A stretch of DNA of 64,000 nt from contig CAZGFQ010000001.1 in assembly GCA_964525185.1 (NCBI GenBank), positions 29,486 through 93,485 of the forward strand, in the 5' to 3' direction. Both the position numbers and the translations under genes were made by a program. The notes below the pieces were generated by a model. That model ran no database searches and had not been told where the DNA came from. It was given only the letters and a program-made list of their open reading frames with translations. Position 1 is the first letter of the stretch, and the number at the start of each line of letters is the position of its first letter. Origin of the DNA: an uncultured bacterium (lineage in GTDB: Bacteria > Fidelibacterota > Marinisomatia > Marinisomatales > UBA1611). This document shows, in pieces, positions 1,706 through 29,783 of this stretch.

Positions 1706-1777
1706 CTACTCCTCCTTTTTTAGGATCCTATTGTATTACCCTTGTGGATAATTCTTATTTGAAATGGAAACATATTT

Positions 1778-2929: not shown

Positions 2930-3721
2930 TTATTCCGGAGCTCCAATTAGTACCCAAGTTTTAATTTGTTCTATTCTTTTGTTAGACAGGAAAGGGGGAC
3001 CATCTCGAGGCATTCTATCACCTTCTATATCTACACCAACCACTTTTTTTACGAGGTAACTCACATTTGGATACCATGGGTTGACTCTCAATAATTCGGG
3101 TACTTCAAATGCGGCATAATCCACTAATTGTTCATACGCCACTTCTTTTGTATTTAATAATAATTCGCCTGCCCCACTAGATGTGAGATGGCATGAACAA
3201 TTTTTATCAATAATATCATCATATACTATATCCCATGCGGATTCATCACTTATATCTAACGTATTGGAGAATGAACCAGTAGAATCAGGGTTTTCTAAAC
3301 TATTCCAAATGAAATCAACTTGTCCAGATGAACCATTTTCTCCATCAAATTCAATCCAAACTACAATTGAATCAGAACCTAATATTTCATCCCCAGAAGA
3401 AATGCCTTCAACCGATTCAATATTTCCTGTTAGAGTGATATCATTAATTGATAATGCTTCTGTCCCTGTATTTTTTAGGACAGTAACAACTTTTAATTCA
3501 TCACTACCTTCTTTAAATGGGATATCACTTAAGGATGTTAATGATATATCTAAGTGGCCAGCTTGGGGAACGAATGGTGTGCCATCAGGTTTAAGTTCAG
3601 AACCATCTCCCGCAAAAGATATTCCCATGGGGTCTCTCCAATCATCACCGCCACAGGAAATACATAATAATGCAATCATGAAAAGAGATATAATATTAAT
3701 TATTCTTAAGTCATTTTTCAT
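2930..3721 (-). CDS. Lipoprotein with C-terminal PSCyt1-like cytochrome domain carrying CSCH (CXCH) instead of CXXCH
   Basis: The signal/lipobox-like N-terminus is LFMIALLCISCGG. The C-terminal ...NCSCHLTSSGAGELLLNT...GDRMPRDGPPFLSNKRIEQIKTWVLIGAPE matches the remembered PSCyt1 pattern (C..CH...L.L...MP...L....I..WI..GA). A 4-nt ATGA overlap links it to the upstream gene, and it directly abuts the downstream gene. Confidence 0.7.
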   Translation of the reverse strand: MKNDLRIINIISLFMIALLCISCGGDDWRDPMGISFAGDGSELKPDGTPFVPQAGHLDISLTSLSDIPFKEGSDELKVVTVLKNTGTEALSINDITLTGNIESVEGISSGDEILGSDSIVVWIEFDGENGSSGQVDFIWNSLENPDSTGSFSNTLDISDESAWDIVYDDIIDKNCSCHLTSSGAGELLLNTKEVAYEQLVDYAAFEVPELLRVNPWYPNVSYLVKKVVGVDIEGDRMPRDGPPFLSNKRIEQIKTWVLIGAPE

Positions 3722-4638
3722 TGTGTTAACTCATAATCTTTTTTAAATAATTTGTAAATCAAGCTTTCCTTTTCACGTTGATCTAAGACATAATAGACAA
3801 GAGCCCATTTTCTCATTTGAAAATAAGTGTACATATCTTCTTCAGATTTATTATAAAGTTCATCCCCAGTAATTGACTTCTTAGCCCATGAGTCAAAAGC
3901 TTTAATATCGTCTTCCGAATACACAGCTTCTAAGTTGCTATAATCTCCAACAATATCTTCTCGAGCAAATCCAAAAATATCATCATCATATCCTGGCATG
4001 GGCGTCCCAGTCAATCCAGTTGAAAAAGTTCGATAAACATCAATTGGATCACTTCCTCCCTTAAAAGGATCGTGAGCAAAATCAGGAGGTACTATTGGAT
4101 TTCCCCAATCATTGACTAACTCATCAGATGTTGGTCCATCAGCATTCCCCTCTGGGCCATGACAGCTGAAACATTCCATGAGACGATATACCATTTGTCC
4201 ATCCTGAACTAATTCATCCGTTTTTTCTGGTACGACTGATGGAAGTTTTACTTCAGGAGCAGGTGTTTGAATAGTGAACTTTTCTGCAAAAGTTTTAATA
4301 TAGGATGTAACGTCAGCAACATCCTGTTCATTTAATATATTCTCCCAAGCGGGCATAGAAGTTCTAGTTACGCCATTTCGAATTGTTTTATGGATATTTT
4401 CATCTGTTGGAAGCGATCCTGATGGTGTCGTTCTAAAAAGGTATTTCCCTTTTGTAAAGTCTCGTGGAAGGGGAGATAGAACTATTGCAGCTGGACCATT
4501 TCCATTACCCGACATGCCATGGCACCCACTACAATTTGATTGGTATATTAATTTACCTTTATTTATATCGGGTAAATTATTTGCATTTCCAATGGTAATG
4601 AATATGGCAAATATTGAAATTATTTTAAATTTTTCCAT
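3718..4638 (-). CDS. Periplasmic dihaem class-I c-type cytochrome
   Basis: It has a signal peptide and two class-I modules: CSGCHGMSGNGNGPAA...TSMPAW and CFSCHGPEGNADGP...GTPMPGY. Confidence 0.85.
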   Translation of the reverse strand: MEKFKIISIFAIFITIGNANNLPDINKGKLIYQSNCSGCHGMSGNGNGPAAIVLSPLPRDFTKGKYLFRTTPSGSLPTDENIHKTIRNGVTRTSMPAWENILNEQDVADVTSYIKTFAEKFTIQTPAPEVKLPSVVPEKTDELVQDGQMVYRLMECFSCHGPEGNADGPTSDELVNDWGNPIVPPDFAHDPFKGGSDPIDVYRTFSTGLTGTPMPGYDDDIFGFAREDIVGDYSNLEAVYSEDDIKAFDSWAKKSITGDELYNKSEEDMYTYFQMRKWALVYYVLDQREKESLIYKLFKKDYELTQ

Positions 4639-5050
4639 TCGATCCTTTCAATGCTAATTCTTTAAAAGAAACATTACTTAGTATTTGATTGATTTCATTT
4701 TCAACTCGGTGCATCACATTTTGAAGTGGCTTACATTGATGTTGCCTACCACAATCTTCAAAATTCGTATCTTGACAATCAATCATATGCATTTCTCCTT
4801 CAAAAACCTCAATGACGGATTTCAACGATATATCACTGGGTGATTTAAGCAACTTATATCCACCATGAGTTCCTCGTATAGATTCCACAATATTATTTTT
4901 TACGAGTTGTTGTAAAATTTTGGAAAGGAACTCTTCTGGGAGATTTAATGCATCAGCAATTTCATGTTTGCTTTTTAAGTATCCTTTTGGATTAGAAGCG
5001 AAAAAACTCACCACTAATATGCCATAGTCACATGCTTTACTAATACCCAT
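4625..5050 (-). CDS. Rrf2-family transcriptional regulator (IscR/NsrR-like, three-Cys cluster motif)
   Basis: MGISKACDYGILVV...HEIADALNLPEEFLSKILQQLVKNNIVESIRGTHGGYKL is a typical Rrf2 wHTH. The CQDTNFEDCGRQHQC motif (C-x7-C-x5-C) suggests Fe-S binding. I prefer the ATG at 5050 over the track start at 5101 because Rrf2 proteins begin at this helix. A 14-nt overlap links it to the downstream cytochrome gene. Confidence 0.85.
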   Translation of the reverse strand: MGISKACDYGILVVSFFASNPKGYLKSKHEIADALNLPEEFLSKILQQLVKNNIVESIRGTHGGYKLLKSPSDISLKSVIEVFEGEMHMIDCQDTNFEDCGRQHQCKPLQNVMHRVENEINQILSNVSFKELALKGSNGKI

Positions 5051-5135
5051 AAATGTTTCTTTATTACTCCTTGATTCGTATAATGGACAAAATGAGTCCA
5101 CTTTCGATAAGAAAATATAGAAACTGAATATTAAA

Positions 5136-5234: not shown

Positions 5235-5558
5235 TTAATCAATTTTAATGTTATATAATTCTTCGAAAAGATCTGTTTTCATGATTCGTATTGCATCCCA
5301 AGTCAATTTTGTACATACTCGGGCACATACCTGACATCCAATGCATTCATCAAATCGTACTTGTACAGGTGGTATGGGTGAACCATATTTTTCTATTGGT
5401 ACTGGCTCAATACAATCTACGGGACAAAATGGAACACACGCCTGACAGCCAGTGCAATTATCTTCATCCACAATAGCCATAACTTTGGGGCGTTTTTTCT
5501 TTAGGTTTGGGACATCTGGTAATTCAGGAATCCCCTTAAAATGATTGTAAACTGCCAT
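5235..5558 (-). CDS. 2x[4Fe-4S] ferredoxin
   Basis: It carries CTGCQACVPFCP and CIGCQVCARVC motifs. Confidence 0.85.
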   Translation of the reverse strand: MAVYNHFKGIPELPDVPNLKKKRPKVMAIVDEDNCTGCQACVPFCPVDCIEPVPIEKYGSPIPPVQVRFDECIGCQVCARVCTKLTWDAIRIMKTDLFEELYNIKID

Positions 5559-5630
5559 TAATATTCTCTTCTTAGAACTGGAAATTTACACAGCTATATT
5601 ATTTTTCCTTCTTTTTTTTTGGGGATAATG

Positions 5631-7163
5631 CTAAAAACGATATGTCAACCCAAAATAGCCAAAAGACCTTGTATAATCTGCATCTTTTGAATAATCAATA
5701 CTTGTATACATGTTTAAATATTTACCTATTTTTTTTGAAATACTGATAGAGAATGTATGCTGTGTAAAATCATTCCAATTATTTCCGAACCCAAAAGTAT
5801 ATATTTCATAATCAGCATTAAAAAAACCATTTCTCAAAATGGGCTTGGAAATACCCCATTTATTTTGGAAACCTTTTAACAATTGATTTTGAATCATAAT
5901 ACTATTCCAATCAATCGATAAGCCATTTTGCGTTGGGTTAGTTCTATAATTGAATGAACGTACAGAAGAATATTGATCTGTCCCAGATTCTCTTCTGAAA
6001 TTGGATCCTAATTGAAGGATGCCCCAACGTTTTGTTTGTACTTTGAAGGCGTTATACCATCCATTTTTTAATTCGGACTGAAATAAAGAATCTGGCACTA
6101 AAATTTGAGATTGTTGATAAATAATTTGTTGGCGAGATGTATACCGAGATCGAAAAGTTATTTTTCGGGTTAATTTAATTTTAAGTGAAAATTGTGAAAA
6201 TGTTGATTCAAGTATTTCTCTGTTATAAACAGGATTATTTCTGTAAAAATCGAATGTTTGATACAATTTGACGGATAATTGATTTATGGGAGAATAGGAC
6301 ATTTTTGAATAGATGAATTCACGATCAATATCTGATCCAGCGTATTGCCCAACAAAAGCAATGCTACCTGTAAAATGGTGTTTCGGAAATTTGACTTTTG
6401 AAAAAAGTCCTAATTTTTTTATGTTTGTATTGAATTGGTACGATTCTGGATCTGGTTGAAGTCCACCCAAACCACCAATAATAATATTTTTCATGAGCGG
6501 GGATGTTGCTAATAAACCATCTGTGGCACCAATGCCTGAAAGTTCTGATGCAAAAACTCTCCCCAATTGAAAGAATGGTCCTTTATTTTTTATACCAAAA
6601 CTTGCTCGAGCTTGGTAAAGGGTAAATTGTTGATTTTGTAAATTGCTTCTTCCATAAATACCTATTTTAAAATGTTTTAGAGCTGGAGCACTTAATCCAT
6701 ATTGCAATGTTCCAATTCCTGATTGTTCTGAGACTCCGTCGGGAAGCGATTGAATTGTGGACCGAATGGATAAATGCCCCGATTGATTCAATTTCAGTTT
6801 TTCTTTCTCAGGTTTTTGAGGTTGATTAGTGGCAGGAGCAATTGGACTATCTGGAATAATTACATTGGTTTTTTCAAATTGAACTCGATCACCTATTTGA
6901 ATGGATTCTATAGGAACAAGGGGGGAAGAGACGGATGAATTTTTAGCTGAATGGGTGATGACCAAATCGCCTATAATTTCTGATCGGCGGAAAAGTTGAA
7001 GTGTATCCCCTACAGAAACCCCCTGTGAAGTTCCAATATCACAATACACTTGGTCTGCTGTCAAGTAAGTGACTTTTCCCTGCCCCGTAATGATTTCCAT
7101 ATTCTGTCCAAAACCAATCGCTAACAGACATATAAAAAGATTCTTTTTTAAAATATTAATCAT
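5631..7163 (-). CDS. Outer-membrane beta-barrel protein (putative porin partner of the multihaem cytochromes)
   Basis: The preferred start is the ATG at 7163 (MINILKKNLFICLLAIGFGQ is signal-peptide-like), giving an 8-nt overlap with the upstream gene. The track start at 7277 would overlap it by 120 nt. The body has long alternating-hydrophobic segments and the terminus is ...YFGLTYRF. No family was recognised. Confidence 0.6.
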   Translation of the reverse strand: MINILKKNLFICLLAIGFGQNMEIITGQGKVTYLTADQVYCDIGTSQGVSVGDTLQLFRRSEIIGDLVITHSAKNSSVSSPLVPIESIQIGDRVQFEKTNVIIPDSPIAPATNQPQKPEKEKLKLNQSGHLSIRSTIQSLPDGVSEQSGIGTLQYGLSAPALKHFKIGIYGRSNLQNQQFTLYQARASFGIKNKGPFFQLGRVFASELSGIGATDGLLATSPLMKNIIIGGLGGLQPDPESYQFNTNIKKLGLFSKVKFPKHHFTGSIAFVGQYAGSDIDREFIYSKMSYSPINQLSVKLYQTFDFYRNNPVYNREILESTFSQFSLKIKLTRKITFRSRYTSRQQIIYQQSQILVPDSLFQSELKNGWYNAFKVQTKRWGILQLGSNFRRESGTDQYSSVRSFNYRTNPTQNGLSIDWNSIMIQNQLLKGFQNKWGISKPILRNGFFNADYEIYTFGFGNNWNDFTQHTFSISISKKIGKYLNMYTSIDYSKDADYTRSFGYFGLTYRF

Positions 7164-7962
7164 GTTCACTCCCTGATGGGTGGCATTGATAACAAGCATT
7201 AGAATTATAAATATATCCCGATTCATCATCATGTTCATCGTCCATTTTACTTTGACGATGATCATGGCATACCCCATTTAAACCACAGGAAAATTCAGTG
7301 TAATCATTGGGATTAATATGACATTCTGCCGTGCAGGAAGTCCACTCATTTCGATGCTTTCCATTATATATAGGAAATAAAATATCATGATGTGACATAT
7401 CAATGGGTGACCAGGACCATGTGTTATGGCAAAGAATACAATCGGTATTATCAGGATGATTTCCAGCAATAATACTTTCTGATATTTCGGATTGATGGCA
7501 ACCATCACAATCCGTAGGCAACCAAGATGACCAGTTTTGTGAATTGGTTTGATGGCATTGGTTGCACAAGAGTGATTGATGCATTCCTGCCAATGGGAAT
7601 AGAGTCAATTCATGGTTGAAACCGGAAACAGACGTTTCCCAACTAATGGGAGAATGACATCGCTCGCAATCTAATCCATTTGCTTCTTGATGAATATCGA
7701 AATGGCAGTCACTACATTCAGTTGATTGATTTGAAAATTGATGTTTTTCTTCAACTGTATTTCCAATATGACATTGAATGCAATCAGCAAATTTATGTTG
7801 CCCTAACAATGTATATCGTGTTGTATTATGGTTAAAAAGTGGCTCATGAGATAAAGGTAGCCATGATTGTTCTCCATGGCAATCTGAACAGTCCATTGTT
7901 GTAATAATTTGATTTTGACTTAAACCAATAGTCAGTGTTAGCGTAATCATAATCCAAATCAT
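7156..7962 (-). CDS. Multihaem c-type cytochrome, 8 CXXCH + 1 CX3CH
   Basis: By manual count the motifs are CSDCH, CIQCH, CSDCH, CERCH, CNQCH, CDGCH, CILCH and CYQCH, plus CTAECH. It has a signal peptide and a 4-nt ATGA overlap with the upstream gene. Its N- and C-terminal modules are paralogous to those of the 925-aa cytochrome. Confidence 0.9.
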   Translation of the reverse strand: MIWIMITLTLTIGLSQNQIITTMDCSDCHGEQSWLPLSHEPLFNHNTTRYTLLGQHKFADCIQCHIGNTVEEKHQFSNQSTECSDCHFDIHQEANGLDCERCHSPISWETSVSGFNHELTLFPLAGMHQSLLCNQCHQTNSQNWSSWLPTDCDGCHQSEISESIIAGNHPDNTDCILCHNTWSWSPIDMSHHDILFPIYNGKHRNEWTSCTAECHINPNDYTEFSCGLNGVCHDHRQSKMDDEHDDESGYIYNSNACYQCHPSGSEHD

Positions 7963-10736
7963 TTGAATATTGGTTTATTATATTTCTTTTGTTTTTTAAT
8001 CCAAAAACGTAATAAATCACCGTCATCTCCATCATCTTCACTTCCATTCGGATGACAATTATAGCAGGCAGAACTTTCATAAACATAATCCGATTCTTCG
8101 TCATGTTCATCATCCATTTCACTTTGATCATGGTCGTGACAAACACCGTTTAACCCACACGAAAAATCCGTATAATCATCTGGATTGACATGACATTCCG
8201 CCTCGCAGCTGGTCCATTCATCCTCGTGTTCTCCTGAATAAATGGGGAAGTAATCCCCATCATGATCAAAGGTCACATCATCCCAATCCTCCGTGGTATG
8301 GCAGGCTTCGCAATTGGTGGGATCCCCATCATTATGCTCTTCATAAAAATCTTCCATATGACAAGATGCACACCCCTCGGTAATAGATGAATGATTAAAA
8401 TCGACGTCTTCCCAATCTGATGTTGAAGTATGGCATTGTTCACATTCGGTTGGGAATCCATCATCATGTTCTTCTTCAAAATCCGCCATGTGGCAATCTG
8501 CACATCCTGTTGTGATGTTGGTATGTTCAAAGGTTGCTCCTTCCCATGTATCTGTTCCTGTATGGCAATTTTCACATGTTTCAGAAAAACCTTGTCCAGT
8601 TGTATGGGGCGGATTTGACGCATTTTGGTAATCCACAAAATGGCAGGTGGCGCAAGGCGCACTCAAAGTATGAGCATAAATATCAGGCGACCAACCTAAA
8701 GGATTATGACATTCTTCACAAATATCAACAGAATATCCATAAACACTATGGTCAGGATCAGTTGTTTCATTAAAATCGGATAAGTGACATTGGCCATCCT
8801 GACATGAATTTGGTGTATTATTAATAATATTATTGATGTGACAATCATTACAGTCAGTCGTTAAATGTAATCCAAACAGAATAAAAGATGTTTGATCTTC
8901 TGTATGGGGAAACGGATCAATAATCCATTCCGAGGAATTGGGGTGGCAGAGCGCACAATCTGTGCTAATATTATTATTGCCATGGATTGGATCAGTACTA
9001 TTTTCATGTTCCGGAGTATGACATTCTTGACAATTTGTTTCTGTGAAATTGACATGATCAAAAATCAATTCTTCCCAAGATTGATCCGCATGGCATAACG
9101 CACAATTGTTGTTTATATTATGAGATGTATGGTTATAATCTGACGTTGTGGAATTGGTTGTAGCCAACCCACCATCAATATGGCATCCAGAGCAGTCTGA
9201 TGGTAAATCAAAATTTCCAACATCATGGCATTGTTCACAATCGATTAAAGCGTGGGCTCCACCAAGAGGAAAGTCTGTTAAGGAATGGTCAAATTCTGCC
9301 CCTTCCCATGTTTCAGTTGAATGGCACACTTCACAATTTTGACTATATTGGTCATCTGAATGAGATGGAGAATCAGGATAAACAGATGTGCCTGTTTCAT
9401 TAAAATCTTGCTCGTGACAAGACCAACAGTCGTTGGGTGTATTATTGTATATTTCATTTACATGACAGGATTCGCAATTAGTAGTAAGGTGTGCACCTGT
9501 CAAAAGATAATCTGTTTGTGAGACTGTATGGGTGAAGGGCGAAATAGTCCACGATTCTGTTGTGGCATGACATACTTCACAATCGGGACTGATATTTCCA
9601 TCAGCATGTGGTGGGTTGATGGAATTGATTTGTTCGGGAATATGGCAGGATTTGCAATCCGTATTGGTAAAATTGATATGATTAAAAATAAGTTCAGCCC
9701 AATGTGATCCCACGTGGCAGTTTTCACAGGTTTCATTGATTTGATGTGACTCATGATCATAGTCCGATTGGAGAGAATTTGTCGAAGCTAATCCGCCATC
9801 AACATGGCACCCAGCACAATCCATTGGAAGATCATAATTCCCGTCGCCGTGACATTGGTTACAGGTAATTGTATTATGCGCATCTAGAAGTGGGAATTCC
9901 GTTTCATTATGATCAAAAACTGCACCTTTCCATGTGCTCGTTGAATGGCATGCTAAACAATCTTGAGAATACCCAGCTTCAATATGACTTGGAGCATCAG
10001 GGAAAACGGATGTTCCTGTTTCGATAAATTCTGTTTCATGGCAGGACCAACAATTTTCCGGAAAATCATATGTTCCCCCCGAATGACATTTAGCACATGG
10101 GGTAGATTTATGGGCTCCATCTAAAATAAAATCTGAAACTAATTCATGGACAAACGTAGATGGTGTCCAAGATGATTGACTCGTTGAATGGCATTCTTCA
10201 CAGTCAGTATTTAGTCTTGATTCGATGTGAGCTGGATTTGTGGAACGATCATAATCAAGCCGATGACAATCATAACAATCAGTCGGGGTCAAATCAAAGT
10301 TTGTCATAGGTGTTTCTGTGTGGCATTCCCGACATAGTGTTTGTTTATGAGAGCCTAATAATGAAAATTGTGTTAATTCATGATTAAATGTCTTAGTTGT
10401 GACTTGCCAGGAATCATTTCCATGACATTGAGCGCAGTCATTTCCTAACTTATTTTTATGTACATCCAGATGGCATGATGAACATTCATTTTCATCTAGA
10501 CTAAATTGATGCTTTTCAGCCACGGTATTTCCTTGGTGGCAAGATGCGCAATCTTGAATACGATGACTCCCTTGCAATGGGAAATTGGTTATTGAGTGGG
10601 AGAACCCTTTTAAACTCAATGTAGTCCAATCATCTCCGCCATGACAATCGCTACATTCAAGCCCAGCCACATTGAGTTCTTGATTCTGAGCAGAAATAGT
10701 CCATTGCAATAGCATGATTAAAAAGAACCTTTTCAT
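7959..10736 (-). CDS. Giant multihaem c-type cytochrome, 32 CXXCH + CX4CH + CX3CH
   Basis: It has a signal peptide (MKRFFLIMLLQWTISAQ). By manual count there are 32 canonical CXXCH motifs, plus CQDGQCH (residue 645) and CEAECH (residue 844). F.H..T.F.L.G.H....C..CH units recur throughout, and a 4-nt ATGA overlap is present at both ends. Confidence 0.9.
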   Translation of the reverse strand: MKRFFLIMLLQWTISAQNQELNVAGLECSDCHGGDDWTTLSLKGFSHSITNFPLQGSHRIQDCASCHQGNTVAEKHQFSLDENECSSCHLDVHKNKLGNDCAQCHGNDSWQVTTKTFNHELTQFSLLGSHKQTLCRECHTETPMTNFDLTPTDCYDCHRLDYDRSTNPAHIESRLNTDCEECHSTSQSSWTPSTFVHELVSDFILDGAHKSTPCAKCHSGGTYDFPENCWSCHETEFIETGTSVFPDAPSHIEAGYSQDCLACHSTSTWKGAVFDHNETEFPLLDAHNTITCNQCHGDGNYDLPMDCAGCHVDGGLASTNSLQSDYDHESHQINETCENCHVGSHWAELIFNHINFTNTDCKSCHIPEQINSINPPHADGNISPDCEVCHATTESWTISPFTHTVSQTDYLLTGAHLTTNCESCHVNEIYNNTPNDCWSCHEQDFNETGTSVYPDSPSHSDDQYSQNCEVCHSTETWEGAEFDHSLTDFPLGGAHALIDCEQCHDVGNFDLPSDCSGCHIDGGLATTNSTTSDYNHTSHNINNNCALCHADQSWEELIFDHVNFTETNCQECHTPEHENSTDPIHGNNNISTDCALCHPNSSEWIIDPFPHTEDQTSFILFGLHLTTDCNDCHINNIINNTPNSCQDGQCHLSDFNETTDPDHSVYGYSVDICEECHNPLGWSPDIYAHTLSAPCATCHFVDYQNASNPPHTTGQGFSETCENCHTGTDTWEGATFEHTNITTGCADCHMADFEEEHDDGFPTECEQCHTSTSDWEDVDFNHSSITEGCASCHMEDFYEEHNDGDPTNCEACHTTEDWDDVTFDHDGDYFPIYSGEHEDEWTSCEAECHVNPDDYTDFSCGLNGVCHDHDQSEMDDEHDEESDYVYESSACYNCHPNGSEDDGDDGDLLRFWIKKQKKYNKPIFK
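8805..10052 (-). repeat. In-frame tandem duplication (2 x ~208 codons, 8 CXXCH each) inside the 925-aa cytochrome gene
   Basis: Residues 229-436 (CWSCHETEFIETGTSVFPDAPSH...) align colinearly with residues 437-644 (CWSCHEQDFNETGTSVYPDSPSH...). A third, truncated copy starts at residue 645 with CQDGQCHLSDFNETTDPDH. Confidence 0.8.
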
Positions 10737-12139
10737 CGGATATCACCCGTGAGTTTGTGACAATCAACGCACCGGCTTGGGATAGGTTGATAGCGCGTAA
10801 ATATTCCCACCTCATCTCGTTCAGTTGGGTGGCAATCTTGACAAGGAACATTTTGATGTTTTCTGTCTAAAGGGAATTGGGTTGAATCGTGTTGAAATTC
10901 TATAGTATTAAATGATGCTGATATGTGGCAAGATTCACATGTATTATTGTAATGAATCGCAAATTGATTTCGGTGTTCATCTTTATGACAAATTTTGCAT
11001 TCCGGGTTTTCCCATGTAAACTGAATTTGTGATTTTCCCGATTTTGTCTGGTAGGGTTTATGACATTGATTGCACGGAACTGCCATATGCCCACCATCCA
11101 ATACAAAACGCGAAATAAGGTGCATAGAAAAAGTAAATGTGGTTGGTTTAAATCCATTTACGGTATGACATGCAGCACAATCGCCTCCATCTTGTCTTCG
11201 GGTAAATTGTCCTTCATGATAATCGGCATGGCACGCTTGACAAGAAAGGTATAAGGGGAGAGTACCTGCTAAAGTTTGGTTATGGCAATCCATGCATTTC
11301 ACATTTGCATGTTTTCCGTCCAATGGGTATTTCGTTTTGGAATGATCAAAAGATTTTGTTTTTTTCCAATTTTCTGTGATGTGGCAGGATTCACATTTAT
11401 TCCCGTAACTGCCTTTGTGATAATCAGTATGGCATGAAGTACAGGATTCAAAATCGATTCCGGTAAGTTGCTGAACGGGTGGATTCCAATCTAAATGTTT
11501 TGTATGACATTTTTCGCAATCCACTTTTTTATGGGCTCCAGTCAGATGAAATTGAGAATTTTTATGATTAAAAGATTTGGATGCATCGGTCCAATTATTC
11601 ACATTATGACATGATTGACAATCAGATCCAACTTCACCTTTATGAATGTCACTATGGCAACTTTGGCAATCTTGAGATAAACCTAAAAAAGTGCGATCTA
11701 ATACAGGGAATGTGGTATTTTCATTTGCCCATTTGATGATAGGTTCCCAGACAATATTTTCTGCAGAGTGACATTCTCCACATTTAACTTTTCTATGTTT
11801 ACCTTCTAATCGATATCCCGTTTCATTATGGTCAAATTTGGCCATATTTTTTGGCCAAAATACCAATTCAAATTCTTTTCCATTATGATCGGAGTGGCAT
11901 AGACCACAATCTTTTTTTCGATCATCCCGATGATAACCCTTGTTTTGGTCCATCTTAATTTTCAAAGGTGTATGGCATTTTACACAGCCATCTGAAATTT
12001 CTTTTTTACCCAACTCATGACATTGGACGCAATTGGAGGTGCCTTCCAAATCCGCGTGGTATTTGGATAAAGGTCCAGGGGAAAATTGACTAAATATTAC
12101 CGATGTCATCATCATGAATTGAAGGATCAGTTTTTTCAT
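10733..12139 (-). CDS. Multihaem c-type cytochrome, 17 CXXCH
   Basis: The count of 17 CXXCH motifs is manual. The ATG at 12139 gives a signal peptide (MKKLILQFMMMTSVIFSQ), whereas the track start at 12166 is a TTG. Confidence 0.9.
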   Translation of the reverse strand: MKKLILQFMMMTSVIFSQFSPGPLSKYHADLEGTSNCVQCHELGKKEISDGCVKCHTPLKIKMDQNKGYHRDDRKKDCGLCHSDHNGKEFELVFWPKNMAKFDHNETGYRLEGKHRKVKCGECHSAENIVWEPIIKWANENTTFPVLDRTFLGLSQDCQSCHSDIHKGEVGSDCQSCHNVNNWTDASKSFNHKNSQFHLTGAHKKVDCEKCHTKHLDWNPPVQQLTGIDFESCTSCHTDYHKGSYGNKCESCHITENWKKTKSFDHSKTKYPLDGKHANVKCMDCHNQTLAGTLPLYLSCQACHADYHEGQFTRRQDGGDCAACHTVNGFKPTTFTFSMHLISRFVLDGGHMAVPCNQCHKPYQTKSGKSQIQFTWENPECKICHKDEHRNQFAIHYNNTCESCHISASFNTIEFQHDSTQFPLDRKHQNVPCQDCHPTERDEVGIFTRYQPIPSRCVDCHKLTGDIR

Positions 12140-12172
12140 TTGGTGCACATTCAGGTTGCGTGTCAAGACACA

Positions 12173-13039
12173 TTAACCATAACTCTCATGCGTGATTTGC
12201 TTTTTCTCAATCCCCAAGCCATCCAGAGAAAGCAAGACAGATTCCAAAAATCTGGGGGCAGGGGCAATTCCTTCTTTTCGTGCAGAGATCTTTTCATATT
12301 TTGATATACCCGGACCGCACAAATAAATCTGTGGGTGGTCCATTTTAGCCAATTCTCGTTCAATCCGTTCAGGGGTGATTCTGCCTGTTTGATAGGGAAG
12401 ATTAAATCCATCCGGTTCTTCACGAGTGAATAAAAAATCAACCGTTAATTGATCAGGGAATTCCATTTGTAAATCGATCAATTGTTTTCCAAAAATGGTA
12501 TTGTTCCAAGATTGATTGCTATAAACCAAGGTGTGTTTGATATCCGGGTAAAATTTTAAGGCATATTTTAATATACTATAATTGGGGACAATACCACTTC
12601 CTGCACAAATGTGTAGAATTTCGCTGGGCAAGGGTTCATTTTTTGGCAATGTGTAAGGTCCCGTAAATCCGGTCACTATCATTTTTGAACCTTTGTGCGT
12701 TCTTTTCGCAAGGATTGGAGAAAGGAGAGGCGGATACTTGGATTTTCCCGGATAATACATTTCTTCTTTGATGGTAATAGCCAGATATTTTTCATCTGGA
12801 GAACTGGATAAAGAATAAGCTCTCGGACTTTCCTTTTTACCTTTTTTATCTTCCAAAAAAGCCGTCCATCTTTCCAATGCTACAAATTGATGGGGATCAA
12901 TGGTCAAAAAATGCCCTGGTTCATAATCCAATAAATCATTCCCGGTAAACAGAATTAATGTTGTTGTATCAGGCGTCTCTTCGATTACATCTGCGACCAT
13001 GATTTCAAGTTTTTTTATTTTTTTACGATTTGTGCTCAT
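12173..13039 (-). CDS. Ferredoxin-NADP reductase-like FAD/NAD(P)-binding oxidoreductase
   Basis: It carries RAYSLSS (the RxYS FAD motif), the ICAGSGIVP nucleotide-binding motif and LCGPG near the C-terminus. There is no signal peptide. Confidence 0.8.
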   Translation of the reverse strand: MSTNRKKIKKLEIMVADVIEETPDTTTLILFTGNDLLDYEPGHFLTIDPHQFVALERWTAFLEDKKGKKESPRAYSLSSSPDEKYLAITIKEEMYYPGKSKYPPLLSPILAKRTHKGSKMIVTGFTGPYTLPKNEPLPSEILHICAGSGIVPNYSILKYALKFYPDIKHTLVYSNQSWNNTIFGKQLIDLQMEFPDQLTVDFLFTREEPDGFNLPYQTGRITPERIERELAKMDHPQIYLCGPGISKYEKISARKEGIAPAPRFLESVLLSLDGLGIEKKQITHESYG

Positions 13040-13077
13040 GCTTAAAATAGCTTCTCTTATAGTATTAACGACTGAAA

Positions 13078-14391
13078 CTAAGCCTTTGCTTCAACTTTTT
13101 TCCCAAATTCAATCCCGATAGAATTAAGCAGAGGAAAGGGTAATTCACCACCGGCGAATATAAATGTATAATCATTTTCTAATTCAACGGAAGAATCGGG
13201 AGTTTGCAAGGTGACTGTGGTGTTCGTAATTTTTTTTGGATTAGAATTTAAAACAGCTTTCAATAATCCATTTGAAATTGCTTCTTCAATATGGGATTCA
13301 TTTCTCGCTTTCAGGCGAAAGAAATTTTCCTTCCGATAAGAAATGGTTACCTCATTCCCCTCCTGATGGGCAAGTCCCAGAGCAGCTTCAATGGCACTAT
13401 CTCCACCGCCAACGACTAAAAGTTTTTTATGTTTATAGGTTTCTGCATCAATGAGCTTATACATCACTTTCCCTAATTCTTCTCCTGGAATGCCTAATTT
13501 CCTAGGAGTTCCTCTTCTGCCCAAAGCTAACACGACTCTGGAAGCCGAGGCGGGGCCAGAAGATGTTTCTATCGTAAAATTCCCTTGTTCGCCTGCAATT
13601 CCTTTCAATTGATGATTTGAAAGTAATCGAACTTTTTGTTCTCGGATAACTTTTTCCCAAATTGCCAATAAATCTTCTTTTTCATATTCGCCTTTTTCCA
13701 AAGCGCCAAATAAAGGTAATTCTACTGGCTGAACCAATACCAACTTTCTTCTTGGATATTGCAAGATGGTTCCACCGGGTTGATCCTGATCCAATACTAA
13801 ATAATTGAGGCCCAATTCCTTAGCTCGCAATCCTGCGGACAACCCAGCAGGCCCTGCACCAATAATGACTACATCAAATTCAGCTTTTGAACTTTCATCC
13901 TTATTGCGATGTATATGATCCACAGCCGTAACGCCATGGCTGATGGCATTTTTAATTAAGGCTAAACCGCTCAATTCACCAATAATATAGAGCCCTGGAA
14001 TATTGGTTTCAAAATCGTCCGATAATTGAGGAATATCTTCTCGTTGACTGATATCTCCTAATCCAATTTCAATCCCAGAAACCGGACACGCTTCAGCGCA
14101 TTTTCCATGTCCTACACAATGGCTGCCGTGAATGATAGTTGCTTTCCCGTCAATCAATCCCAAGACTGTACCTTCTGGACACGCATCCACGCAAATACCA
14201 CACCCAATACATAGCGATTGATTTATGATCGGATGTTGTAACAAAGCTTTATCTTGTCTTTTTGCGCGGGTTTCCTCGAGTCGTTTTCGGGTAAGAGCGT
14301 CCTTTTTTTTCATGGTTTGAATGTAGGGAATCAAAAAAATAAGGATAATCATAATGCCGATTCCCCATGAGAGTAATAATTCTGTATTCAT
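13078..14391 (-). CDS. Membrane-anchored Fe-S flavoprotein (ferredoxin domain + FAD/NAD(P) pyridine-nucleotide-disulfide-oxidoreductase-like domain)
   Basis: It has an N-terminal TM helix, CIGCGICVDACP, and CVGHGKCAEACP (His in place of the second Cys), followed by DVVIIGAGPAGLSAGLRA and LLVVGGGDSAIEAA dinucleotide folds. The ATG at 14391 overlaps the upstream stop by 1 nt; the track start at 14403 is a GTG. Confidence 0.8.
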   Translation of the reverse strand: MNTELLLSWGIGIMIILIFLIPYIQTMKKKDALTRKRLEETRAKRQDKALLQHPIINQSLCIGCGICVDACPEGTVLGLIDGKATIIHGSHCVGHGKCAEACPVSGIEIGLGDISQREDIPQLSDDFETNIPGLYIIGELSGLALIKNAISHGVTAVDHIHRNKDESSKAEFDVVIIGAGPAGLSAGLRAKELGLNYLVLDQDQPGGTILQYPRRKLVLVQPVELPLFGALEKGEYEKEDLLAIWEKVIREQKVRLLSNHQLKGIAGEQGNFTIETSSGPASASRVVLALGRRGTPRKLGIPGEELGKVMYKLIDAETYKHKKLLVVGGGDSAIEAALGLAHQEGNEVTISYRKENFFRLKARNESHIEEAISNGLLKAVLNSNPKKITNTTVTLQTPDSSVELENDYTFIFAGGELPFPLLNSIGIEFGKKVEAKA

Positions 14392-15257
14392 CAAAACACC
14401 CACGTATAACCCATGGCAACGACCACGGTAACATGAATAATCATGATAACAATCATCGTGTATGCAAATGGCTTATGAATCACATGCCAATAATGAAAAA
14501 GAGAATGGGCTGCAGACCAAAATGCAATTTGTCGATCCATTTTAACAATTTGACGTAAAGAATGCTTAAAAGATTTCATATCGGAATCTGAAACAGAAGC
14601 GGATGATTGAATATCTTTTTTAATTTTTTGCCATTTGAACCAACCGGTAATATCCATAAAAAGGATAGTAAAAATGCCCCATAACCCTCTTTTTTCAATT
14701 TGATCTGCACCAGATAAATCTCGGATGTGGTTAATGGTTTGGTTAGAAATACTAAATTTATTTTGAAAAGTTTGAATGATGTTCGAGAGATTGTCTTTGA
14801 ATTCATCTCTTGTTAATTCTTTCCCACTGACACGATGAGGAATCTTGATATAGATATAACGTCCGATAAATCCACTGGAAGCCACAGCTACCATGGACCA
14901 ATAAGAGATAGAAACCAAACCACCAAATTTAAAAGCTGTATGAAAGGTGACGAGAATAGGTCCAGCTATTCCGAGAAAAATATGATAATTAAGCCATGTA
15001 GGCAATTTGCCCCATTTCTTAAAAATTCCAACACGCTTTCTCAGGGAATACGCAAACATAATGATCATCATTAAACTACCTGCAATTCCAAGTCCATGAC
15101 CAATAAATCCACCTGGTTTCCACGCGCGATGAAGAGCAATTCGGGGACGATCAATCATGGATGCACCATAATAGTCCCCCGCCGTCAGTAAAATCCACAC
15201 AACAAACCCAAAGGTTATGAATGAAAAAAAGGTAATGATATATCGATGGATATTCAT
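14391..15257 (-). CDS. Six-TM membrane protein with two H-x13-H pairs (candidate dihaem-b, ferric-reductase/NOX-like transmembrane domain)
   Basis: One TM helix reads YHIFLGIAGPILVTFH and the last reads HKPFAYTMIVIMIIH, each with two His exactly 13 residues apart. The preceding LRKRVGIFKKWGKLPTWLNYHIFLG resembles the ferric-reductase domain motif. A loop of ~100 aa separates TM4 and TM5. Confidence 0.55.
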   Translation of the reverse strand: MNIHRYIITFFSFITFGFVVWILLTAGDYYGASMIDRPRIALHRAWKPGGFIGHGLGIAGSLMMIIMFAYSLRKRVGIFKKWGKLPTWLNYHIFLGIAGPILVTFHTAFKFGGLVSISYWSMVAVASSGFIGRYIYIKIPHRVSGKELTRDEFKDNLSNIIQTFQNKFSISNQTINHIRDLSGADQIEKRGLWGIFTILFMDITGWFKWQKIKKDIQSSASVSDSDMKSFKHSLRQIVKMDRQIAFWSAAHSLFHYWHVIHKPFAYTMIVIMIIHVTVVVAMGYTWVF

Positions 15258-15369: not shown

Positions 15370-16059
15370 TTGGAGCAGTTTGTGCACATTCTCATCATAG
15401 AAGATGAATCTTTTATTGGCGAACATATAAAATCGTCTTTGATAGATCGTGGGTTTTCCTGTAAATGGTTTCAGAATGGGGAAGATGGATTAGAGTCCGC
15501 TGTAGTGGATTCTTATGATTGTATTATTCTGGATAGACGCCTTCCAGATATGGAAGGGTTGGATATTTGCAAAGAAATTCGATATCAAGGCATCAGTACC
15601 CCCATTATTATGTTAACAGCAATGGCGGATATTGACCAAAAAGTGGAGGGGTTGAATGCTGGAGCGGATGATTATATGACTAAACCCTTTTCTGCCGATG
15701 AATTGATTGCACGGTTAAATGCCGTTGTACGTCGAATTACATTCCAAAAAAAACCAATACTTCAATTATCGAATGTAGAATTAAATCCATTAAAACGAAC
15801 TGTAAAAGTGGATGGCAAATTGATTACAATGTCAAATCGAGAATTTATATTATTACAATATTTAATGCACCATGGAGGAAAACCATTAACACGGAGTCAA
15901 ATATTTGATCATGTATGGGGTGATTCCGGAGGTTCCGAATCTAATGTAGTTGATGTATATATAAATTACATTCGTAAAAAAATTGATATAAATCCAAAAA
16001 TGGATTCGCACATTATTACAATGAGAGGATATGGGTATAGGTTCAATGAAGATGCCTAA
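15370..16059 (+). CDS. OmpR-family response regulator
   Basis: A receiver domain (ILIIEDE...ILDRRLPDMEGL...TA..D) is followed by a winged-helix output (LSNREFILLQYLM...VWG...NVVDVYINYIRKKI...TMRGYGYRF). The track start is a TTG, and an in-frame GTG at 15382 is an alternative. Confidence 0.9.
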   Translation: MEQFVHILIIEDESFIGEHIKSSLIDRGFSCKWFQNGEDGLESAVVDSYDCIILDRRLPDMEGLDICKEIRYQGISTPIIMLTAMADIDQKVEGLNAGADDYMTKPFSADELIARLNAVVRRITFQKKPILQLSNVELNPLKRTVKVDGKLITMSNREFILLQYLMHHGGKPLTRSQIFDHVWGDSGGSESNVVDVYINYIRKKIDINPKMDSHIITMRGYGYRFNEDA

Positions 16060-17434
16060 ACTTACACTTCATGCTAAAATTGTTCTTTGGTCTTCATTGG
16101 TTGTTGGCATCATTCTAATTGTGTTTAGTATAGAATCCATTTTATTAATTAGGAATAAATTAGGTGAGGATGTAGATCATAGATTAGAATCGGAAGCACA
16201 CGAAATAATTCAAACATTTGGATTAGTAGATGGACAAGTAAAAATTATACATGAATTTGAATGGGAAGAACCTCACCACGTTTCTGAAGAAGATGCTATA
16301 TACATTTTATACGCAGATGAAACTCGAAAAGAAATAATAAGGTCGAAAAATTATTTAGGAAAAGCATCTCCTATTTCGTCTATTTCATTTGATTCCTTAA
16401 ATACAACATTCAAAACACATATAGTTAATGACATAAAAATCCGTTTTGCAGCAAAACCTTTTAGTTTTAATGAGACACATAAAGGTTGGCTCATAACAGG
16501 AATGACTTTTGATGGATTGAACCATGTTCAAAATGTTATTTTGGGTGTATATGCCTTTATTTTTCCGCTTGCAATGCTCATCGCTTTTTTAGGCAGTTCA
16601 GTTGTGGCTAGAAAAGCACTTGAACCTGTGTTAGATATATCAGAAACAGTTCGACATATTCATTCTCGTAATTTAGATCAAGAACTCAATGTTTTGGATT
16701 CAAAAGATGAAATTGCCCATTTAGCAGATACAATAAATGATCTACTCAAACGATTGCGCATAAGTTTTAAAACTATTCGCCAATTCACAGCTAATGCTTC
16801 TCATGAATTAAAAATACCATTATCTATCGTTAAGGCAGAATTAGACCAATTACAAAAAGTAGATCAAAATACGTTAAAAAACGAATCTTTAGAAAGAACT
16901 AAACTTGAATTAAATCGAATGGCGAAACTTATTGGTGACTTGTCAACGCTTGCGAAAACGGATACAAAACAAATCATGATCAATAAACAAACCGTTTGGC
17001 TAAACGATATAATTCATGATGAAATTGAACGATATCGACCTACATCAAATGAGAAAAATATTGCATTAGTTGTAGATAAATTACCATCAGTTTCAGTGCA
17101 TGCTGACCCTCACTGGATGCAGGTTTTAGCATCAAACTTACTTGATAATGCTATTAAATTTTCACCTAATGGTTCAACCGTTAACATACACATTATTGAT
17201 AAAGATAAACAATTTTATGAATTAAGTATTACAGATAACGGCCCTGGAATTCAGGATACTGAAATTGAGAATGTAACACGTAGATTTTATCGATCTGAAC
17301 CGGCTAATAATATATCAGGTAGCGGTTTAGGATTATCAATAGTGGAATGGGTTGCGAAATCTCATGGAGGAGAAATTGTTTTTAAAAATAATGATGGCGG
17401 TGGATTAACCGTCACTCTCACGATTCCAAAATAA
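16031..17434 (+). CDS. Sensor histidine kinase (2 TM, periplasmic loop, HAMP, HisKA, HATPase_c)
   Basis: It has the H-box FTANASHELKIPLS, the N-box LLDNAIKFSP, and G-boxes DNGPGI and GSGLGLSIV. Alternative starts lie at 16046 and 16052. Confidence 0.9.
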   Translation: MGIGSMKMPKLTLHAKIVLWSSLVVGIILIVFSIESILLIRNKLGEDVDHRLESEAHEIIQTFGLVDGQVKIIHEFEWEEPHHVSEEDAIYILYADETRKEIIRSKNYLGKASPISSISFDSLNTTFKTHIVNDIKIRFAAKPFSFNETHKGWLITGMTFDGLNHVQNVILGVYAFIFPLAMLIAFLGSSVVARKALEPVLDISETVRHIHSRNLDQELNVLDSKDEIAHLADTINDLLKRLRISFKTIRQFTANASHELKIPLSIVKAELDQLQKVDQNTLKNESLERTKLELNRMAKLIGDLSTLAKTDTKQIMINKQTVWLNDIIHDEIERYRPTSNEKNIALVVDKLPSVSVHADPHWMQVLASNLLDNAIKFSPNGSTVNIHIIDKDKQFYELSITDNGPGIQDTEIENVTRRFYRSEPANNISGSGLGLSIVEWVAKSHGGEIVFKNNDGGGLTVTLTIPK

Positions 17435-17594: not shown

Positions 17595-18067
17595 TATAAA
17601 GCTTCATCCATTTCATTTATAAGAGAAATTTGCTCCCTAAAGGCAGTGTTTTTTATTTTTAAAGCATAAAAGTGATATACAATACCTAAAAGAAATAATT
17701 GCCCATGAAGCCATCCTATAGAAAAGTCATTATCAGCTGCACCGCCTAAAATAAAAATGGTTCCAAATATTAGAACTGTTAAACTAACATGTTTATAAAT
17801 TGGACCTTTAATTTTAGCCATACTGATTTGAAATGTTTGCGCTTTTTCTAATTGGGCAATAAGTGGTTTATATGCTTTTGATGTTGCAATAAAAAAATAC
17901 AGAACCAATGTTTCCGTGAATGATAAAATTATCATAGTAACAGTAGCAATTCGGGGGTGATTAACCCCAAAAATAGTTTGGTGTGTTACACCCGCATATC
18001 CTGTCAATACGAGTAAAAGGGTCGTTAAGCCCATTAGGGCATAACATGAAATTAAAAATATCCACAT
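17594..18067 (-). CDS. Four-TM membrane protein, unknown function
   Basis: The ORF has an ATG start and four hydrophobic segments. No family was recognised. Confidence 0.6.
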   Translation of the reverse strand: MWIFLISCYALMGLTTLLLVLTGYAGVTHQTIFGVNHPRIATVTMIILSFTETLVLYFFIATSKAYKPLIAQLEKAQTFQISMAKIKGPIYKHVSLTVLIFGTIFILGGAADNDFSIGWLHGQLFLLGIVYHFYALKIKNTAFREQISLINEMDEAL

Positions 18068-18111
18068 TTATTATTTATCCTTTAAATAAGAAGGCGGGAA
18101 TTTCGAATAAA

Positions 18112-22085: not shown

Positions 22086-22093
22086 ATGTCACT

Positions 22094-23212: not shown

Positions 23213-23233
23213 AAGAAACCTCGTAATTTGAGT

Positions 23234-24025: not shown

Positions 24026-24043
24026 ATTGCTTTAGAATTCCTA

Positions 24044-24592: not shown

Positions 24593-24595
24593 AAT

Positions 24596-29772: not shown

Positions 29773-29783
29773 ACCAATTCTAC

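Follow-up and report, generated by a model that had tools for sequence, protein, structure and literature searches.

A PCC3-like porin-cytochrome gene cluster in Marinimicrobia and other phyla with a linked Fe-S flavoprotein: a candidate conduit for electrons from cytoplasmic NAD(P)H

Results

The gene cluster

We analysed a 64,000-nucleotide stretch of contig CAZGFQ010000001.1 (GenBank assembly GCA_964525185.1), here called the window, from an uncultured bacterium of the Marinimicrobia (also named Neomarinimicrobiota or Fidelibacterota). Our subject is a cluster of membrane protein, flavoprotein, multihaem cytochrome and barrel genes that may encode a conduit for electrons across the cell envelope. 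According to the open reading frame (ORF) listing, eight minus-strand ORFs, all co-directional, span 15257 to 5235, and the further ORFs in this interval are short and embedded within them. The original prediction, made from the letters of the window, had announced nine genes, but its own product list names eight, as does the ORF listing. We refer to the genes as g1 to g8:

14391-15257, minus strand: g1, 288-aa inner-membrane protein with five transmembrane (TM) helices and an insert, a predicted dihaem-b transmembrane electron carrier
13078-14391, minus strand (longest ORF to a GTG at 14403): g2, membrane-anchored cytoplasmic Fe-S flavoprotein, likely start Met5 at 14391
12173-13039, minus strand: g3, 288-aa soluble FNR-family flavoprotein, FAD_binding_6-like and NAD_binding_1, lineage-specific accessory
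10733-12166, minus strand: g4, 477-aa cytochrome with 17 CXXCH motifs and a signal peptide, likely start Met10 at 12139, presumed periplasmic wire
7959-10736, minus strand: g5, 925-aa cytochrome with 32 CXXCH, one CX3CH and one CX4CH motif and a signal peptide, presumed extracellular
7156-7962, minus strand: g6, 268-aa cytochrome with 8 CXXCH motifs and one CX3CH motif, short paralogue of g5
5631-7163, minus strand (ORF as listed, 5631-7277): g7, 510-aa outer-membrane protein with signal peptide, N-terminal beta domain (residues ~21-102), linker and barrel
5235-5558, minus strand: g8, 107-aa 2x[4Fe-4S] ferredoxin with Fer4_21 and Fer4 matches and two CxxCxxCxxxC motifs, lineage-specific accessory

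The junctions are as first described: neighbouring genes overlap by 1 nt at 14391, by ATGA at 10733-10736 and 7959-7962, and by 8 nt at 7156-7163. The 1-nt overlap is the base that the g1 stop codon TGA (14393-14391) shares with the ATG of g2 Met5 (TGATG), and homologues of g2 mostly begin at the residue matching Met5. The 8-nt overlap lies between the g6 stop codon and the g7 ATG at 7163 (Met39). Counted from this Met39 the barrel protein has the 510 aa first given for it, whereas the ORF as listed has 548. The remaining intergenic gaps measure 6-72 nt. A scan for sigma-70 promoters and terminators, with a model that does not extend to promoters of the Fibrobacteres-Chlorobi-Bacteroidetes (FCB) type, returned sites no commoner than in shuffled sequence and leaves transcript structure unaddressed. 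Rfam and tRNA scans of the window gave no matches.

Multihaem cytochromes and barrel

The CXXCH counts reported earlier for g4, g5 and g6 (17, 32 and 8, in total 57) were reproduced. Shuffling the residues of each protein gave a mean of 0.14-0.40 CXXCH motifs and a maximum of 4. Because such shuffles contain fewer than 0.5 motifs per protein on average, the observed counts are far above chance. All three cytochromes have signal peptides and 27-30 residues per haem, a spacing similar to that of known haem wires, and none has a TM helix.

In g4, with 28 aa per haem, Pfam matches were found to Cytochrome_C7, c3 and MtrC/MtrF domain II/IV, together with a weak match in the Protein Data Bank (PDB) to the dodecahaem cytochrome GSU1996 (3OV0). 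The giant cytochrome g5, with 27 aa per haem and a total of 34 haems when the variant motifs are included, has no sequence relative in the PDB. The small cytochrome g6 aligns to residues 3-218 (39% identity) and 714-900 (42% identity) of g5, that is, to the N- and C-terminal modules only. The same terminal modules are kept in the giant cytochromes of other phyla, which vary in length from 16 to more than 67 haems, suggesting docking ends and an extensible middle spacer. Genes like g6 are mostly found in Marinimicrobia (8-9 haems) and also in some Calditrichota (10 haems).

The barrel protein g7 was modelled with AlphaFold2 (AF2) at a mean local confidence (pLDDT) of 84.5. The model contains a 22-strand barrel (DSSP count) with a C-terminal aromatic residue, and the LTYRF terminus noted earlier is present. 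Foldseek searches of the PDB placed FimD/PapC usher pores and general porins at the top, with template-modelling scores of ~0.45. As the original prediction had it, the barrel belongs to no recognised family, since g7 matches no Pfam, NCBIfam or PDB sequence family. A profile of the barrel family gave one weak TsaP/FlgT-like match in the N-terminal domain against PDB sequences (E 0.022), which we treat as a lead only. Homologues of g7 occur at 20-26% identity in other phyla, including in Emticicia.

The inner-membrane protein and its Fe-S flavoprotein

In the AF2 model of g1 (pLDDT 79), five long TM helices cover residues 2-31, 51-74, 85-107, 114-137 and 224-281, and hydropathy and charge distribution agree with five helices. 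A helical insert of ~110 residues separates TM4 from TM5, and was placed in the cytoplasm because of its positive-inside charges. The protein had earlier been taken for one with six TM helices; it is best read as five helices and this insert. The two H-x13-H pairs of the earlier description are present (H92/H106 and H261/H275) and are invariant across 33 homologues. They lie within larger invariant motifs in the same homologues, W88-x3-H92-x13-H106 on TM3 and W257-x3-H261-x13-H275 on TM5, and a third invariant motif, S128-G-x-x-G132 including G129, is found on TM4. Three more histidines are invariant, one (H54) at the end of TM2 that faces the periplasm and two (H255 and H258) where TM5 starts on the cytoplasmic side.

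Sub-threshold Pfam matches in the g1 family were to DUF4405 (16/33 sequences), Ferric_reduct (5/33) and Ni_hydr_CYTB (5/33), the first two at E<0.01. At this level the best family match to DUF4405 (PF14358) reached 4e-5, and g1 of the window itself had none; no family member was seen to reach the gathering score of Ferric_reduct (PF01794). Against Ni_hydr_CYTB, g1 scored 19.6 bits (cut-off 30.1). Binding of haem b has been demonstrated for DUF4405 proteins, which are MsrQ-like (PMC11334425). The g1 superfamily is large, with 4140 clusters (50% identity) at E<=1e-3 and 839 at E<=1e-30.

The flavoprotein g2 consists of an N-terminal TM helix, a ferredoxin domain of the 2x[4Fe-4S] type (Fer4_10, 8e-11) and a FAD/NAD(P) domain with the TrxR fold (Pyr_redox_3, 1.1e-42). 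Its nearest solved relatives are YpdA/Bdr, TrxR and TrxR-type FNR. The single TM helix (residues 2-32) is followed by 10 K/R within 27 residues, and no twin-arginine (Tat) motif was found in g2; these features together place the protein in the cytoplasm. The motifs CxxHxxCxxxCP, GxGPxG and GGGDSA are invariant in 66 sequences of the family. The first of them is the second Fe-S motif of the protein (residues 96-107), and its invariance implies a cluster with a His ligand, such as some hydrogenases have where electrons leave or enter. In the first Fe-S motif, the second Cys is missing in some family members.

All seven cysteines of g2 lie inside the Fe-S domain (residues 65-106), and across the 66 sequences none lies outside it. 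A function as a disulfide reductase of the YpdA/TrxR kind was rejected, because the flavin domain contains no redox-active Cys. The family scores for TIGR04018 (160 bits, cut-off 339.9) and TIGR01292 (76 bits, cut-off 343) are below threshold.

The two accessory redox proteins are of other types. In g3, the Pfam match to NAD_binding_1 (9e-9) is accompanied by weak NCBIfam matches to the reductase modules of PaaE, flavohaemoprotein and NqrF. None of the eight products matched a quinol dehydrogenase of the NapC/NirT, ImcH or CbcL type in Pfam or NCBIfam, in line with the earlier statement that no known enzyme of this kind is encoded in the cluster.

A conserved core of five genes

Relatives of g1 were sought in one genome per GTDB species and found in 492 species. 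The best 80 loci were mapped for ORFs and homologues, and those with at least 9 kb beyond g1 (n = 37) were counted as long loci. In all 37 of these, g1, g2, a g4 with 17-20 haems, a giant cytochrome and a g7 homologue occur together. The g4 homologue has 17 or 20 haems in 36/37 long loci, and in the 37th as well once the region upstream of g1 is included. In contrast to this universal set, g3 is present in 7/80 related loci, and g8 in 1/80, being confined to the closest relatives (L001 and L008). The conserved core is therefore made up of g1, g2, g4, g5 and g7, and g3 and g8 are lineage-specific extras.

Three gene orders were observed (g1-g2-g4-g5-(g6)-g7, g2-g1-g4-g5-g7 and g1-g4-g5-g7-g2), and the five-gene set persists across all of them. 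Comparison of these loci supports a functional link of the flavin, Fe-S and predicted dihaem-b genes to the cytochromes and the barrel. The original prediction had already joined such a module to a conduit, and this link is borne out by the 37 long loci. The NOX-like pairing of g1 with g3 that it had in mind is not, as g3 is rare and the universal partner is g2. The presence of g2 at every long locus points to NAD(P)H, instead of quinol, as the likely cytoplasmic partner. We found no paper that describes this linked flavoprotein.

The related loci span about ten phyla. Their hosts include Marinimicrobia, Calditrichota, KSB1, Zixibacteria, Gemmatimonadota, Acidobacteriota, Cytophagia, Ignavibacteriales, Marinamargulisbacteria, one alphaproteobacterial metagenome-assembled genome (MAG) and others. 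The named homologues of the barrel and of g1 belong to Marinimicrobia. Outside this phylum, median identity to the window proteins drops from the cytoplasm to the outside, being 44.5% for g2, 40.6% for g1, 38.4% for g4, 32.6% for g5 and 24.1% for g7. A search with a cross-phylum barrel profile, the reach of which is limited by its word prefilter, returned 19 proteins, all from Marinimicrobia/FCB.

Among the Marinimicrobia, L001 (barrel 75% identical) has the same eight genes. Others have a small Haem_bd protein instead of g3, and g8 is missing. This Haem_bd (PF14376) protein of 150-160 aa with one CXXCH lies between g1 and g2 in many Marinimicrobia (L002 4063-4515; L004 8867-9358) and may be a monohaem link on the periplasmic side; the window has no such gene between g1 and g2.

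Further variants were seen elsewhere. At L082 (3937-13938), two pairs of outer cytochrome and barrel precede g1-g2-g4, and at L076 (1722-10861) g1 closes the cluster. In L006 and L074, a TPR protein is encoded between g2 and g4, and the giant cytochromes reach at least 60-67 haems; the gene call in L006 is 2518 aa long.

One copy is located on plasmid pEMTOL02 of the cultured Emticicia oligotrophica DSM 17448 (L088 8884-21468), where it is annotated as hypothetical, 'NAD(P)-binding' and 'cytochrome c3 family' proteins only. A self-contained copy on a plasmid implies horizontal mobility. A ccsA gene for cytochrome maturation (1028 aa) lies directly ahead of the plasmid cluster (EMTOL_RS21090-21110, with a 1001-aa cytochrome), and a gene for a GW-domain protein comes after it; the vicinity also encodes a Rieske protein, a DUF5777 barrel, YceI and a cytochrome c. 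A tblastn search of plasmids with g4 yielded Emticicia and weak matches only. In the literature, we found no paper tying Marinimicrobia to such a conduit or to extracellular electron transfer.

Comparison with known systems

PCC3, a porin-cytochrome cluster type, was defined in Proteobacteria, with Slit_1446-1449 of Sideroxydans lithotrophicus as an example and Slit_0867-0870 as further reference proteins (He et al. 2017, PMC5566968). It comprises a porin, cytochromes of ~21 and ~34 haems (medians) and an inner-membrane protein of ~300 aa with five TM helices, SGXXG on TM4 and WX3HX13H on TM3 and TM5 (PMC5566968). The authors likened this membrane protein to the domains of ferric reductases and NADPH oxidases (NOX) and guessed that it reacts with quinones (PMC5566968). 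The reported PCC3 hosts were Alpha-, Beta- and Gammaproteobacteria only, and the cluster had four genes and no flavoprotein (PMC5566968).

The likeness to our cluster is close. The order in Sideroxydans (membrane protein, periplasmic cytochrome, extracellular cytochrome, porin) recurs here as membrane protein, presumed periplasmic cytochrome, giant cytochrome, porin, with the AF2-modelled 22-strand g7 as the barrel. Compared with the published description, g1 (288 aa) fits the membrane-protein signature residue for residue. The haem numbers of 21 and 34 (medians) compare with 17-20 and 16 to more than 67 here, and the residue-to-haem ratio is low in both. Unlike PCC3, the present clusters occur in Marinimicrobia and other, mostly FCB, phyla, and they always include a membrane-anchored Fe-S flavoprotein; in Marinimicrobia an 8-9-haem cytochrome joins them, and in the lineage of the window also the FNR-like protein and the ferredoxin. 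The original prediction of a conduit of an undescribed kind is not borne out, as the architecture is already published as PCC3, the NOX comparison of the membrane protein included (PMC5566968). What is apparently new is the flavoprotein link and the occurrence in Marinimicrobia and other non-proteobacterial phyla, for neither of which we found a published description. A 'gigantic porin-multihaem cluster' with 61 and 20 haems, described from Lentimicrobium as 'lacking synteny to any characterised PCC modules' (2026, PMC13013709), is probably of the same type, judging from its haem numbers and phylum.

A tblastn search of plasmids with g1 also matched Alteromonas, Qipengyuania, Methylophaga and other Proteobacteria. 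In all four proteobacterial loci that we inspected, a membrane protein of ~250 aa comes after a membrane-anchored reductase with FAD_binding_6, NAD_binding_1 and [2Fe-2S] domains, and in three of them (all but Methylocystis) a 7-8-haem cytochrome follows. The trios of reductase, membrane protein and cytochrome on proteobacterial plasmids are:

L089, 7935-12654: reductase-membrane protein-cytochrome trio
L090, 6890-10734: reductase-membrane protein-cytochrome trio
L092, 7034-10811: reductase-membrane protein-cytochrome trio

Profile-profile comparison identifies the membrane proteins of the trios as homologues of the g1 family (hhalign probability 99.6%, E 1e-23, 212 columns), with which they share the SGFxGRY and HX13H motifs. 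As in our cluster, a membrane-anchored cytoplasmic Fe-S flavoprotein of the NAD(P)H type is combined with a periplasmic multihaem cytochrome. However, the flavoprotein is of the FNR type, with [2Fe-2S] and a Met/His-rich periplasmic region, and neither a barrel nor a giant cytochrome is present. To the FNR part of a proteobacterial membrane reductase, g3 is 23% identical over 291 aa. The trio corresponds to the third group of Supplementary Table 6 of He et al. 2017 (PMC5566968). A DUF1622 gene follows the Qipengyuania and Methylophaga trios, which have heavy-metal resistance neighbours (a heavy-metal-responsive regulator, a P-type ATPase and DUF411), and the Alteromonas trio adjoins hydrogenase genes. 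The trio may be an NAD(P)H-driven periplasmic metal reductase.

Other conduits are similar in their logic. MtrCAB/MtoAB with CymA likewise combine a periplasmic decahaem cytochrome in a large barrel with an outer cytochrome and an inner-membrane entry protein, and the order outer cytochrome, small cytochrome, barrel of mtrC-mtrA-mtrB resembles g5-g6-g7. In contrast to these systems, our cluster has no MtrB/PioB match, no lipoprotein signal, no NapC/NirT, and 22 strands instead of 26. The MtrA/DmsE model TIGR03508 scored only 40.6 and 50.2 bits here (cut-off 192.2). Geobacter Pcc (OmbB-OmaB-OmcB) is, by its description, also a barrel beside an octahaem and a larger outer cytochrome with CX3-4CH motifs. 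Here, the outer cytochromes are much larger, g5 and g6 have no lipobox, and ImcH and CbcL are missing.

With NOX and ferric reductases, in which the spacing may also be x12, g1 shares the two H-x13-H pairs on TM3 and TM5, for which we predict haem binding, and the outward path from a cytoplasmic NAD(P)H flavoprotein that we propose below. In the MsrQ-Fre system, too, the flavoprotein is a separate polypeptide and the acceptor periplasmic. Both differ from the present system in that g1 has five TM helices, not six, with Ferric_reduct below threshold, and that the main flavoprotein here has the TrxR fold with Fe-S, not the FNR fold. The acceptor here is a multihaem chain that would run on across the outer membrane. 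The dihaem succinate:quinone reductases (SQR) and fumarate reductases of Bacillus subtilis and Wolinella succinogenes contain a flavin, an Fe-S chain and two stacked haems b across the membrane. The sequence of flavin, Fe-S and two haems b is thus alike, but the proteins are unrelated, the substrate is another, and the distal partner is quinone, not cytochrome c.

Genomic neighbourhood

The genes flanking the cluster are:

15370-17434, plus strand: two-component system, OmpR-type response regulator and HAMP histidine kinase (Pfam), divergent from the cluster
4625-5101, minus strand: Rrf2-family regulator (Pfam), directly downstream of the cluster
3718-4638, minus strand: class-I cytochrome c, 306 aa, after the Rrf2 gene
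ending at 440, minus strand: three distal genes, encoding proteins of 263 and 383 aa without Pfam match and then a 421-aa Big_2-domain protein

The divergent two-component system is arranged alike in L001 and is a possible regulator of the cluster. The genes of 440-5101 also trail the cluster in L001; in L008, a locus cut short, only the Rrf2 gene and the first part of the cytochrome c gene are visible. These genes were not seen downstream in the more distant loci inspected, and lie outside the conserved core.

Further away, 19089-25471 (minus strand) encodes a bc-type complex with a HEAT-repeat protein, a Rieske protein (24044-24592), cytochrome b (23234-24025) and a 372-aa protein without Pfam match. 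It includes a 998-aa multidomain cytochrome c (19089-22085) with class-I, FixO-like and c7-like segments, an unusual partner for a bc complex. The plus-strand intervals 17983-19038 and 27363-30302 hold copper and oxidase assembly genes, first a CusF+SCO1 fusion and then CtaA (haem A synthase), SCO1, CtaB (UbiA family) and DUF420. The close relative L001 has an operon for an aa3-type oxidase just past the genes downstream of the conduit. The minus-strand interval 30299-34885 encodes a 1528-aa protein that has an AMP-binding module resembling acyl-CoA synthetases at its N terminus and a GNAT acetyltransferase domain at its C terminus; the ~800 residues between these two parts gave no match at E<=1e-5.

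Discussion

The reading that we favour, with modest confidence, is that the cluster encodes a trans-envelope conduit of the PCC3 type whose entry is wired to cytoplasmic NAD(P)H, and which exports electrons to an extracellular acceptor independently of quinones. NAD(P)H would give up its electrons to the FAD domain of g2, a protein tethered by its single TM helix to the cytoplasmic side of the membrane, and they would pass one at a time through the two Fe-S clusters of g2, one with an invariant His ligand. From there, they would move to the inner haem b of g1 (H92/H261), the outer haem b (H106/H275) and the 17-haem cytochrome g4. The outer membrane would be crossed via the 22-strand g7, enclosing part of g6 and/or g5, and electrons would leave through the 34-haem g5 to particulate Fe(III)/Mn(IV) oxides, humics or a partner cell. 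In the lineage of the window, g3 and g8 may provide a second input from NAD(P)H and ferredoxin. What the analysis shows is the gene content, the motifs, the predicted folds, the signals of topology and the co-conservation across phyla; in this scheme we infer the binding of the cofactors, the contact of g1 with g2, the identity of the cytochrome in the barrel, the surface exposure of g5, the substrate and the direction in which electrons flow. The potentials of NAD(P)H and haem and an inside-negative membrane potential would both favour outward flow and oppose inward reduction of NAD(P)+. Bacillus has a dihaem succinate:menaquinone reductase that works in this manner.

Several points weigh against this proposal. 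All members of the family are known from their genes alone. The case for the predicted dihaem fold of g1 consists of motifs and sub-threshold profile matches: a Foldseek search of the PDB with the AF2 model of g1 gave no match better than E = 0.6, the long helical insert being the probable reason, and the family profile had no match among PDB sequences either. The contact between g1 and g2 is suggested by their co-occurrence only. Fusions of g1 with cytochrome or Pyr_redox_3 segments (P0246, P0270, P0272) do not help in this respect; all three are without TM5, for which reason we regard them as probable frameshift or assembly artefacts and do not count them as evidence. On the outer side, g4, g5 and g6 have no lipobox, which leaves surface exposure of the giant cytochromes unsupported, and no C-terminal domain of the type IX secretion system (T9SS) was found in the giant cytochromes of Bacteroidota members. 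On its own, an electrogenic export driven by NAD(P)H yields no conserved energy; its role would therefore be that of an electron sink or of reductive dissolution of metal oxides. An aerobic respiratory island with the bc complex, haem A synthesis and, in L001, the aa3 oxidase surrounds the cluster, and would suit electron uptake to O2 too. Finally, PCC3, the closest described system, is from iron oxidisers, and its authors hypothesised electron uptake and a quinone-reactive membrane protein (PMC5566968).

The last two points lead to electron uptake as an alternative. Electrons donated outside the cell by Fe(II), Mn(II), reduced humics or a partner cell would then reach g4 and continue to soluble c-type cytochromes and a terminal oxidase, or via g1 to the quinone pool, with g2 being ancillary or reducing pyridine nucleotide. 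The architecture and the membrane-protein signature fit PCC3, which is found in Fe(II)/Mn(II) oxidisers, and a class-I cytochrome c, a bc complex, haem A genes and a neighbouring aa3 oxidase operon are available in this genome or its close relatives. We have given this island less weight because it is not conserved beyond the closest relatives, with L002, L004 and L088 having unrelated neighbours. Moreover, the universal partner is a cytoplasmic flavoprotein of the NAD(P) type, and inward reduction of NAD(P)+ would, as we infer, proceed against both the redox and the membrane potential. PCC3 itself is not known to oxidise iron, and on Fe(II) minerals its proteins were for the most part not induced. 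Uptake thus appears unlikely to us.

Export could also be mediated by quinones. In this case, g2 would be an NAD(P)H:quinone reductase, like NDH-2 in the flavin-based pathway of Listeria, and g1 a new quinol dehydrogenase, like the HydC/FdnI-type domain of CbcL, that feeds g4. NDH-2 and g2 share the broad Pyr_redox superfamily, g1 has the weak similarity to Ni_hydr_CYTB reported above, and He et al. suggested that the membrane protein of PCC3 reacts with quinones (PMC5566968). The domain structure of g2 argues otherwise, as its invariant two-cluster ferredoxin domain beside the membrane anchor suits one-electron transfer to haem. To our knowledge, NDH-2 enzymes have no Fe-S domain. In addition, two unrelated Fe-S flavoproteins of the NAD(P)H type, g2 and the reductase of the proteobacterial trios, are tethered beside one kind of membrane protein, a tight linkage that would be unexpected if both merely reduced a common pool. 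We take this pairing as an argument that electrons come from the cytoplasmic reductase and not from the common quinone pool, and accordingly consider quinone mediation quite improbable.

A purely periplasmic role, with the cytochromes as an electron store or a reductase for a soluble substrate and the barrel as a substrate channel or plugged by its N-terminal domain, would agree with the missing export signals (lipobox, T9SS domain or other) on g5-type proteins, with the small N-terminal domain that the barrel has of its own, and with weak NCBIfam matches to the selenite/tellurite operon proteins ExtN and ExtO, but these matches score 28-30 bits, far under the cut-off of 200, barrel and cytochromes are inherited together in all complete loci, and even as two cytochrome-barrel pairs at L082, the 22 strands make the barrel far wider than small solutes need, and lengths of 16 to more than 67 haems are as expected of a surface-exposed wire, so that we regard this explanation as very improbable.

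We therefore return to NAD(P)H-driven export and to its possible setting. The labels of related MAGs (BS150m, NIOZ-UU, SI0xx) presumably stand for the Black Sea and Saanich Inlet, oxygen-deficient waters. Manganese and iron oxides cycle in the Black Sea redoxcline, and Marinimicrobia account for ~30% of the 16S reads there. More speculatively, and with doubts on our part, the system may be seen as a two-membrane counterpart of the eukaryotic NADPH ferric reductases, a single wire of one flavin, two Fe-S clusters, two haems b and ~60 haems c, which spread horizontally through at least ten phyla and would let Marinimicrobia reduce Mn/Fe oxides or swap electrons with partners.

The extracellular electron transfer routes of diderm bacteria that we know of start at the quinone pool via CymA, ImcH or CbcL. 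A conduit that starts at a cytoplasmic NAD(P)H flavoprotein would couple metabolism to the outside in a different way, as a redox valve or a metal-solubilising device and not as a respiratory branch. If true, homology of the membrane proteins would also require the role of the inner-membrane protein in proteobacterial PCC3 to be revised. The plasmid copy in the cultured E. oligotrophica DSM 17448 makes experiments possible. PCC3-like conduits are extended by our analysis to abundant marine and other non-proteobacterial phyla, and the linked flavoprotein alters their likely bioenergetic meaning.

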